Sequence record: CP054387.1
Length of the DNA: 64,000 nucleotides
From: Escherichia phage CMS-2020a
Strand: one strand, 5' to 3'
Position 1 is the stretch's first letter. Each line of letters opens with the position of its first letter. The notes beneath the pieces are model-generated. The model was not told the origin of the DNA. It searched no databases and saw only the letters and a list, made by a program, of their open reading frames with translations. Positions 59,734 to 60,908 of this stretch are shown piece by piece. Made by a program: the position numbers and the translations under genes.

Positions 59734-60327
59734 TTACTGTTTGTTATAAACAAAACCAATATCTTTCTTGTGAGGCATATCTGCTGCTGAAAAAGCTGCG
59801 ATCTTCGCGAGTCGATCACATATTTCATTTTCACGATGCCCGGCGTGACCTTTAACCCACTTCCAGCGAACATTATGTCGACTTGCGGCCTCATCCAGAC
59901 GCTTCCACAGATCAACATTCTTTACCGGTTTTTTGTCAGAAGTCATCCATCCATTGCGTTTCCACCATTTCATCCACTGTGTCATGCCGTTTTTCAGATA
60001 CTGGCTATCAGAGTGCAAAATAACGTTGCATGGATATTTCAAACGCTCCAGCCCGATAAGTGCCCCCATCATCTCCATGCGGTTATTGGTGGTGCTATGA
60101 AAACCATCTGAGAACTCGCGTTCCTCGCCACGATACTGGAGAACGATACCGTAACCGCCCGGGCCACCCGGATTTTTAAGGCAAGAGCCATCACTAAAGA
60201 TTTTCACGGTTTTAAGCTGGGGATTGAACTCTACGACAGGCGTTGTGGGATTGGTGCGGGGAGAATTTTTGTTTTTGTCTTTTTTGCGAGTTTTTGCTTG
60301 CGGTCGGGCTGGTGTCTTCGTTGTCAT
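59734..60327 (-). CDS. ribonuclease HI with ~40-aa basic N-terminal extension
   Basis: ATG 60327 with AGGAG 6 nt upstream; [49 protein letters not shown] align to E. coli RNase HI catalytic regions; N-terminus [24 protein letters not shown] is extra. Confidence 0.9.
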
Positions 60328-60419
60328 ATAAACTCCTGAATCAAGCGCCGCGCCGATTTTTCCTCGCGCGTGCGCACACGCGTGCGTGTTAATAATTATT
60401 AAAATAAACAAATTACTTC

Positions 60420-60908
60420 CCAGAACAGGTTTTTATAAACCTGAACTGAACGAACGAAGTGAGTGAAGTTCACCTCGAACGAAGTGAGAGGTTGTCTTTT
60501 CAGGTAATACTCTCCCAGGGAGGTGAGTATAAAATTCCTCACCAACCTGGTCGTTTCATAACCTGAAAAGCTATGGTCTAAGTCTACTGCCAGCTTAGAC
60601 TTGGGAAGTTATGGATGACAGCACCCCAGAACCGAGATCTTCCCACACTTTATGAAGGGGAGTACTGGATTCAACCTCTCGAAACACCCCAGACTCGACA
60701 ATCATAAAGTGACCCTTGTCTCCGCTCACTTTGGTTCCCCCTTCCCCGACACCTAAACGGCACCGGTTCTACGCTGGTAGTGAGCTTTTTTAAACCTGAC
60801 GCCAGTGACGCTTACCCCCACCCATCAGGTCGAGTCTCCAGTCTACGACTGGAAACTATCAGATCTTAGCACTTACAATTCATCTTATGAATAGTTTGTA
60901 CTTATCTA
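60420..60908. other. long structured intergenic region (direct repeats plus nested hairpins)
   Basis: cgaacgaagtgag at 60451 and 60476; palindrome caggttt-tta-taaacctg 60426..60443; cttttcaggt (60486) pairs with acctgaaaag (60551) enclosing hairpins ctccc-a-gggag and ggtgag...ctcacc; further hairpins aagtcta...tagactt and tccagtc-tac-gactgga; no ORF. Confidence 0.5.

Follow-up and report, generated by a model that had tools for sequence, protein, structure and literature searches.

GOLLD and ROOL are large structured RNAs of prophages and plasmids for which, as for the RNA described here, we know of no established function, and to our knowledge large and intricately folded bacterial RNAs are rare in general, with few of them coming from Escherichia coli and its relatives. 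The immunity RNAs c4 of P1, CI of P4, and CA of N15 are processed RNAs of ~77–80 nt that are excised by RNase P and act on defined sites upstream of an antirepressor or replication gene, and all three elements use such RNAs for secondary immunity. In ColE1, a transcript cut by RNase H (RNA II) primes DNA synthesis. Finally, some extrachromosomal mycobacteriophage prophages have RNA-based origins without a Rep protein, in a region that adjoins parABS and is sufficient for replication (PMC7157519). Here, we analyzed a 64,000-nt stretch of Escherichia phage CMS-2020a (CP054387.1; hereafter “the window”), which is part of an SSU5-like phage-plasmid, and focused on the gene-free stretch at positions 60328–60908, located between the gene for RNase HI (rnhA) and a gene for a small protein. 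A previous reading of this DNA from the sequence alone (hereafter “the sequence-only reading”) had proposed that the region either serves as an origin of replication or a site of primer processing, with the adjacent RNase H acting on it, or encodes a structured non-coding RNA. The second proposal is now strongly supported by conservation, compensatory changes, strand-specific G–U pairs, a promoter, and RNA sequencing (RNA-seq) data, and we consider it probable that the stretch is the gene for a stand-alone, highly structured non-coding RNA of ~445 nt, transcribed from the minus strand, made in lysogeny, and acting as a folded RNA.

This RNA resembles GOLLD and ROOL in kind only. It exceeds 400 nt, contains many covarying helices along with a junction of multiple helices and a long-range pseudoknot, forms a transcription unit of its own on a temperate phage or plasmid, and shows strongly conserved unpaired regions. 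It differs from both in having no homology to their Rfam models, in being hosted by Enterobacteriaceae rather than Firmicutes and similar bacteria, and in its narrow association with SSU5-like phage-plasmids (~110 kb), from which it is expressed in lysogeny. When positions 58000–63000 were compared to Rfam 15 with cmscan (E ≤ 10), no match was obtained in the body of the RNA (60412–60856), and the nearest one was a chance match to a hepatitis C virus (HCV) stem-loop at 60342–60394 (21.5 bits for a gathering score of 56). Hence, no known family was identified, an outcome that the sequence-only reading had singled out as informative. ARAGORN detected no tRNA or tmRNA, and we found no description of this RNA in the searchable literature. 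Because there is no Rfam model, no ColE1-type antisense partner or dependence on rnhA, and no iterons, DnaA boxes, or toxin open reading frame (ORF), we rate this RNA as a new family, with no match to any of the tested families on their defining features.

With 581 bp, the gene-free stretch exceeds every other gap of the early gene cluster on the minus strand within the window, as the RefSeq annotation available for an identical plasmid shows; it had been recognized as the longest, while its length had been underestimated at ~480 bp. Two copies of CGAACGAAGTGAG had been reported 25 bp apart, and are found exactly so, at 60451–60463 and 60476–60488 (25 bp from start to start), with no further copy of this 13-mer across the 64 kb. 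The stretch folds better than shuffled sequences on both strands, and best on the minus strand (z = −5.4, vs −4.5 for the plus strand). Among six diverged relatives, including elements from Escherichia, Salmonella, Klebsiella, and Enterobacter, the core of the stretch (60450–60800) displays a mean pairwise identity of 0.87–0.99, compared to 0.75–0.87 for the flanking coding sequences (CDS), with a drop to 0.6–0.7 at both edges of the stretch. The region is thus not only conserved in relatives, a point on which its interpretation had been said to depend, but conserved above its flanking genes, and its primary sequence is very highly conserved at 60450–60650. The following elements were delineated:

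60412–60856, minus strand: conserved structured RNA of ~445 nt; 5′ end predicted from the promoter, 3′ end from the end of conservation.
60834–60856, minus strand: P1, 5′-terminal hairpin; lineage-specific sequence, pairing kept, double changes in 4 of 7 pairs.
60793–60831, minus strand: P2, long hairpin with minus-strand-only G–U pairs.
60724–60785, minus strand: P3 (60780–60785 with 60724–60729); both-side changes between clades A and B in 3 of 6 pairs.
60746–60766, minus strand: P3a, hairpin inside P3.
60646–60711, minus strand: P5/P5a hairpin; the apical loop of P5a holds GAGAGGUUG, the 5′ pseudoknot strand.
60602–60645, minus strand: P6/P6a hairpin, UGGGAAG/CUUCCCA; 3 of 7 pairs in P6 compensatory.
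60576–60600, minus strand: P7 hairpin with the conserved loop CUGGCAGUAGA; 5–6 of 10 pairs compensatory.
60497–60569, minus strand: P8/P8a/P8b, three-tier hairpin.
60486–60494, minus strand: 3′ strand of the pseudoknot, CAACCUCUC, invariant in all clades.
60451–60488, minus strand: pair of 13-nt direct repeats (RNA sense, CUCACUUCGUUCG); hairpin P9 (60451–60481) is built from the second repeat plus the spacer.
60419–60450, minus strand: P10, 3′ hairpin ending in an invariant UUCUGGG.

The three-tier hairpin corresponds to the “nested multi-hairpin” of the sequence-only reading, which is real, although located at 60497–60569 and not at 60486–60560.

Overall, the fold includes ten helices, most of them with compensatory changes between clades A and B. 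From 38 distinct main-clade sequences, RNAalifold predicted ~130 pairs, and across the 126 pairs counted for covariation, 99.6% of the cells pair and 12 pairs carry double changes, vs 1–3 when partners are slid; the corresponding covariation score was reached by none of 500 shuffles. When 38 distinct sequences were aligned on the basis of a model, paired cells made up 97.7% and 14 pairs had double changes, vs 1–6 with slid partners. Clade B (L171–L175), which was found through loci encoding a small protein 62–65% identical to the one next to the RNA, provides further compensatory changes in P2, P3, P5, P6, P6a, P7, and P8b. The folding and covariance analysis advocated by the sequence-only reading thus yielded a fold beyond that of shuffled sequences and covarying helices in two clades. 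In addition, >12 positions form G–U pairs that are invariant or frequent, or that alternate with G–C and A–U, where the plus strand would give A–C. Since these G–U pairs exist only on the minus strand and are accompanied by compensatory changes, we conclude that selection acts on the transcript.

Beyond these helices, P3 encloses an invariant purine-rich strand (GGGGAAGGGGGAACCAAAG), and the P5a loop strand GAGAGGUUG (60672–60680) is complementary to CAACCUCUC over a 9-bp long-range pseudoknot, both strands being invariant in every sequence. As predicted from sequence, this pseudoknot can close the central P5–P8 domain. Two other pairings were considered and rejected, namely an RNAalifold helix, “P4”, which is not kept in clade B and was replaced in the model by the invariant pseudoknot, and an alternative pairing of the 3′ UGGGAAG with CUUCCCA, which clade B does not conserve. 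In clade B, only part of the second 13-mer is left, and its place is taken by a short hairpin with a GAAA cap.

We next turn to the signals and data bearing on transcription. A sigma-70-type promoter is located just after the stop codon of the small-protein gene, and its predicted start site (~60856) is the first base of P1. This promoter was read from alignments and falls below the 9-of-12 threshold of a simple promoter scan; in all lineages, however divergent the 17-nt spacer sequence, TT(C/T)A.. is found at −35 and TA..AT at −10, mostly with TGn upstream:

60863–60891, minus strand: sigma-70-type promoter; −35 TTCATA (60886–60891), 17-nt spacer, TGn-extended −10 TAAGAT (60863–60868).
Same promoter in SSU5 and pHCM2, read from alignments: −35 TTTAAA, 17-nt spacer, −10 TAAAAT.
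Same promoter in Klebsiella, read from alignments: −35 TTTACG, 17-nt spacer, −10 TAGAAT.
Same promoter in clade B, read from alignments: −35 TTTACC, 17-nt spacer, −10 TAACAT.
60868–60902: imperfect inverted repeat over the −35 hexamer and the spacer; each lineage has its own equivalent.

These equivalents are GTAAGTACTTAC in SSU5 (L002), TAAATAGC-N6-GCTATTTA in clade B (L171–L175), and TAAGTAA-N3-TTTACTTA in a more distant group of phage-plasmids, the pCAV type (L084; see below). Because each lineage has its own version, the arrangement is operator-like, and the repeat looks like a putative operator for a lineage-specific regulator.

Expression could be evaluated from published RNA-seq data for E. 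coli LF82 lysogens of phage Cyrano, which, along with Escherichia phage PhiR41_1, is 98% identical to the window. In Cyrano, a segment inside the RNA is annotated as a gene, CYRAN_81, which is listed among the lysogeny-expressed prophage genes at 12x the prophage background (PMC9928086, Table 1). CYRAN_81 has 117 normalized reads, the small-protein gene upstream of it 9.5, and RNase H 8.4 (PMC9928086, S1 Table), i.e., the RNA segment is 12–14x above either neighboring gene. Across all five conditions, CYRAN_81 reaches log2 values of 6.8–10.35 and exceeds both neighbors by 3.5–5.3 log2 units (11–40x), with its peak in macrophages at 6 h (PMC9928086). Both the level and the profile of CYRAN_81 resemble those of the prophage repressor CYRAN_45. 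Hence, as the sequence-only reading had suggested looking for, there is a transcript over the region in lysogens, and its high level next to a low RNase H signal fits the predicted promoter and indicates that most transcripts stop short of rnhA. Constitutive transcription in lysogens with an early stop before the downstream genes is, in other words, what the per-gene counts display (117 for CYRAN_81 vs 8.4 for RNase H).

The RNA is widespread in these elements. It is carried by 232 of 5426 complete E. coli genomes, with 232 plasmid and 2 chromosomal locations, and no annotated feature lies under the E. coli matches listed. In PLSDB, 687 plasmids match the stretch alone at 86–100%, including plasmids from Klebsiella, Escherichia, Enterobacter, Salmonella (among them pHCM2), Citrobacter, Cronobacter, and Shigella, and the RNA is also found in 11 phage records and 75 IMG/VR contigs. 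A metagenome scan returned 53 true matches, on ~110-kb contigs where these were informative, along with 13 chance matches, and revealed no clade beyond A and B, while a scan of genome contigs added only two Kluyvera loci. With respect to host mimicry, E. coli chromosomes showed no similarity to the RNA, even at E ≤ 1.

Across this collection, the RNA is not tied to rnhA. It is kept where rnhA is cut to a few codons (pSC7) or replaced by betT (pECL-90-1), and in all members of clade B an unrelated gene for a 207-aa hypothetical protein stands in place of RNase H (L171, 3329–3952). As judged by reading, this 207-aa gene has its own promoter-like site after the RNA, and synteny resumes beyond it with homologues of 59094–59588 and 58896–59084. 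The same RNA also occurs on elements typed as IncFIB and as rep_cluster_488. RNase H is a frequent neighbor of the RNA, not an obligatory partner. Taken together, these analyses establish that the RNA is folded, promoter-driven, expressed in lysogeny, under strong purifying selection, and independent of rnhA.

A second RNA occupies the same genomic slot in pCAV-like Klebsiella phage-plasmids. The gene order there is the one of the window (Dam, small protein, a gap of ~570–650 bp, RNase H), with a small protein that is only 45–50% identical, and the promoter is recognizably homologous (TAAGTAAcaATTTACT-17-TATGAT) and again followed by a covarying 5′ hairpin. The pCAV-type RNA is ~480 nt long (L084, 2662–3140; L086, 3280–3760), and its stretch has a fold z-score of −6.5 and 11 compensatory pairs among nine sequences. 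It includes a long-range complement (GUCUCUCGGU/ACCGAGAAAC) and, near its 3′ end, a covarying hairpin followed by U7 within a longer alternative helix. No Rfam match was found for the pCAV-type loci (E ≤ 10). Homology to the SSU5-type RNA was considered and rejected, as neither nhmmer nor a covariance model gave a match and shared k-mers were at chance level, and the two RNAs are treated as not detectably homologous. A Moellerella phage-plasmid has a canonical terminator after the small gene and no counterpart RNA, and Rfam was negative there as well (E ≤ 10). The presence of two unrelated RNAs in one slot suggests that it is the slot that is conserved, and not one RNA family. Such slot-swapping is the pattern expected of lineage-specific determinants, e.g., immunity or incompatibility elements, and is no proof of such a role.

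Based on these observations, we propose that the sigma-70 promoter just after the small-protein gene would drive transcription of the RNA, which would start with a protective 5′ hairpin, followed by two folded domains, one on the 5′ side (P2, P3) and a central one with multiple helices (P5–P8) that the 9-bp pseudoknot would lock. Most transcripts would end, or get trimmed, before rnhA. In the lysogenic (plasmid) state, the RNA would be roughly as abundant as the prophage repressor mRNA, with the neighboring lytic-cycle genes at background, and it would work as a folded RNA, neither as a DNA site nor as an mRNA. Its likeliest role may be that of a lysogeny-phase regulatory or protein-binding RNA of the phage-plasmid lineage, for instance an immunity-like element that would help silence the downstream DNA-metabolism genes until induction. 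We favor a role of this type because the RNA is expressed in a repressor-like manner and heads a set of silent genes, because its promoter is operator-like, because the content of the slot is swapped between lineages, and because of the precedent of P1, P4, and N15. More tentatively, the RNA could found a new class of large RNAs with tertiary structure in enterobacterial phage-plasmids, made in lysogeny and determining a lineage-specific trait, either as an RNA-based factor of immunity or incompatibility or as the RNA subunit of a ribonucleoprotein; the pCAV-type RNA would then be its functional equivalent in the same slot.

Parallels exist with c4, CI, and CA. As with these immunity RNAs, we observe a phage-plasmid RNA whose lysogen-constitutive promoter heads silent lytic-cycle genes, with most transcripts stopping early, and which is lineage-specific and contains short repeated motifs: CUCACU occurs three times and AGUGAG once internally, and these could pair through 7–10 nt of complementarity. 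Several points nevertheless weigh against the proposed stand-alone RNA and its role. The RNA is constrained as one fold over 445 nt, compared to ~80 nt for c4, CI, and CA, and its fold is more intricate than theirs. There is no antirepressor or replication gene directly downstream of it in the window; an Ant gene (SSU5) or a Rha gene (pCAV type) is located several genes downstream, in relatives only. No candidate trans target, i.e., a match or complement of at least 13 nt, was found elsewhere in the 64-kb window. Since P8, P9, and the pseudoknot are invariant, they are backed by conservation without covariation. The RNA-seq values are per-gene counts over 135 nt from strand-resolved data, for which the strand-specificity of the counting is unconfirmed, and no canonical intrinsic terminator was found at the 3′ end of the SSU5-type RNA. 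Lastly, in clade A, reading the sequence that separates the RNA from rnhA revealed no obvious rnhA promoter, so that there the region is in practice also the leader of rnhA.

This last point leads to the alternative that survives best, in which the RNA would be a cis-acting leader or attenuator of the unit formed by rnhA and the genes downstream, with a fold that stops transcription in the lysogen and is overridden upon induction by a factor or by upstream read-through. Parallels include the 6S transcript of lambda pR′–tR′ with Q, and the leader RNAs of P4 or N15. The interval between the RNA and the rnhA ribosome-binding site is relevant here, and includes two features:

60390–60411, minus strand: AT/U-rich variable spacer, 3′ of the conserved RNA end.
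60346–60389, minus strand: GC-rich alternating purine/pyrimidine (CG/CA)n tract with a hairpin, downstream of the RNA and ahead of the ribosome-binding site of rnhA.

The length of the (CG/CA)n tract differs among close relatives, suggesting slippage, and the tract may have a part in stopping transcription before rnhA or in read-through into it. An attenuator would fit with a constitutive promoter, an abundant leader, and a silent downstream gene in lysogens, with the lack of an evident separate rnhA promoter in clade A, with the GC-rich hairpin and U-rich tract found immediately ahead of the ribosome-binding site of rnhA, with the attenuator-like arrangement of the pCAV-type RNA, in which the covarying hairpin and U7 sit inside a longer alternative helix, and with the possibility that the three CUCACU motifs pair alternatively with AGUGAG. 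However, the constraint over the whole 445 nt far exceeds what an attenuator needs, and the downstream gene varies (rnhA, a deletion, betT, or the 207-aa gene) while the RNA remains unchanged. Clade B also has a promoter-like site between the RNA and the next gene, and does not conserve the alternative UGGGAAG pairing. For these reasons, we regard an attenuator as rather unlikely.

Less likely still is an RNA-primed (R-loop) origin for lytic or plasmid replication, at which the G-rich transcript would hybridize near the AT-rich 60390–60411, be cut by RNase H, and prime DNA synthesis. The resemblance to ColE1 RNA II lies in a promoter ~450–550 nt upstream of an AT-rich region (here a conserved promoter, ~445 nt upstream of the AT-rich tract), a structured G-rich transcript of ~450 nt, and, in principle, RNase HI. 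It is offset by the lack of a ColE1-like antisense promoter over the 5′ end of the RNA, where ColE1 has RNA I: the one promoter-like site that is shared on the antisense strand is located in P8 and is weak, with GTGAGA at −35. The RNA also differs from RNA II in its independence of rnhA and of the replicon type and in the absence of an Rfam match, and we know of no pseudoknotted core in ColE1 RNA II. Also in favor of an R-loop origin, two highly divergent lineages have rnhA next to the RNA slot, expression of the RNA occurs in the plasmid state, and protein-free, transcribed prophage origins have a precedent in mycobacteriophages (PMC7157519). The latter share with our locus an extrachromosomal prophage and a lysogeny-transcribed non-coding region with no protein gene inside, and differ in that the element studied here has a RepB-family gene elsewhere.

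Indeed, this RepB-family plasmid initiator gene is located 16 kb away, the RNA exists without rnhA in pSC7, pECL-90-1, and all of clade B, and the same RNA is associated with both IncFIB and rep_cluster_488 replicons. Clade B interrupts the G-runs. Origin signals were likewise missing, with the nearest DnaA-box-like match ~2.8 kb away, no change in GC skew at the region, and no iteron array (three or more repeats), the only repeats being the two 13-mers, which are degenerate in clade B. Given the independence from rnhA, the distant RepB gene, the varied replicons, and the absence of origin signals, an origin or primer-processing site served by RNase H, as first proposed by the sequence-only reading, is ranked low, and we consider an R-loop origin improbable.

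A DNA-level site, i.e., an iteron origin, a packaging site, or a protein-binding array whose hairpins and repeats would act as double- or single-stranded DNA, would be in line with the two exact 13-mers 25 bp apart, the very high primary-sequence conservation at 60450–60650, and the folding of both strands beyond shuffles, yet appears highly improbable as there are only two repeats, the second partly deleted in clade B, as compensatory changes and minus-strand-only G–U pairs reflect selection on a transcript, and as there is a conserved promoter with an abundant transcript. Finally, the mRNA of a small protein or type I toxin (hok-like), for example from the 44-aa ORF annotated as CYRAN_81, is barely credible: lysogens contain large amounts of a highly folded transcript that looks stable, and ORFs of 44 and 48 aa exist in the window, one of them annotated in Cyrano, but both contain 1- and 2-nt indels among close relatives, no ORF of at least 10 aa shares a stop position across clades on either strand, and the substitutions are pair-wise compensatory and not codon-periodic, so that a protein-coding role is rejected.

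In public annotation, the RNA is never marked as such, and protein features overlie it. In SSU5 (L002, NC_018843.1 79147–79911), a 765-nt “Rnase H” CDS extends into the 3′ region of the RNA, and in Cyrano (L096, 78657–78791), the 44-aa hypothetical protein CYRAN_81 is annotated inside it. Both the SSU5 extension and CYRAN_81 look like mis-annotations.

The RNA is flanked by the following genes and signals:

59734–60327, minus strand: RNase HI gene (rnhA), 197 aa, with its ATG at 60327; catalytic core at aa 38–193.
59618–59639, both strands: GC-rich 9-bp hairpin directly after rnhA, terminator-like on both strands and outside the RNA.
60909–61163, minus strand: gene for the small helical protein, an 84-aa ORF annotated as 76 aa; PHROG 5343.

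The rnhA gene has a ribosome-binding site, AGGAG, at 60334–60338, and would be bracketed by the RNA upstream and the terminator-like hairpin (59618–59639) downstream. Its product includes a full Pfam RNase_H domain (PF00075; aa 40–178, E = 1e-44) and, over aa 38–193, is ~65% identical to E. coli-type structures (4ly7, 1rnh) with the acidic catalytic residues aligned. The sequence-only reading had described an RNase HI core preceded by a basic extension of ~40 aa, which both the Pfam match and the structure alignment confirm, with a length of 37 aa. Compared to E. coli RNase HI, which the phage enzyme thus resembles at ~65% identity across the catalytic domain, this Lys/Arg/Pro/Thr-rich N-terminal tail (encoded at 60217–60327) is an addition. 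It is also the least conserved and a length-variable part of the gene, with a mean pairwise identity of 0.57 at 60250–60299. The profile of PHROG 531 includes such N-terminal extensions. The possibility that the tail is a hybrid-binding domain as in eukaryotic RNase H1 was considered and rejected, with no Pfam match over the tail.

More broadly, the window is ~82% identical to Salmonella phage SSU5 and ~78% identical to Klebsiella relatives, and the region of RNase H and the gene-free stretch has a 100% match in an E. coli O104:H4 plasmid. Every gene around the region is carried by the minus strand, within a long DNA-metabolism cluster that includes nrdAB, thyA, folA, an epsilon-like exonuclease, a Dam methylase, the small protein, RNase H, and TciA/TciB-like genes; downstream of the RNA come rnhA, unknown genes, and the TciA/TciB-like genes. 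No neighboring gene matched the defense-system models. The small-protein gene is always directly upstream of the RNA slot, and its product belongs to a narrow family with a predicted three-helix model (pLDDT 77). Since no Pfam family and no fold match in the Protein Data Bank (PDB) were found for this protein, it provides no functional clue. Separately, a long, near-perfect, AT-rich palindrome (CAGCCTGCTTC ... GAAGCAGGCTG) was observed at 61241–61311, between the Dam methylase and small-protein genes, with only chance, miRNA-like Rfam matches; it could terminate transcription in both directions or bind a protein. Another observation concerns CYRAN_43, a “hypothetical protein” gene that adjoins the integrase of Cyrano (OV696614.1 40268–40822, outside the window): in the LF82 RNA-seq data, it is a very abundant lysogeny transcript, at 723x the prophage background (PMC9928086, Table 1).

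Overall, SSU5-like phage-plasmids are common in clinical Enterobacteriaceae, and resistance genes can ride on them; the RNA is found, among others, on the Salmonella Typhi plasmid pHCM2 and in numerous isolates of Klebsiella and Enterobacter. The locus described here exemplifies the exchange of two unrelated structured RNAs within a single conserved genomic slot, and genetically tractable hosts are at hand in E. coli K-12 with PhiR41_1 and in LF82 with Cyrano. This RNA is of real interest for both RNA and phage-plasmid biologists. As an RNA that is conserved above the proteins of its element and made in the carrier state, it likely matters for the maintenance or the induction of these phage-plasmids.

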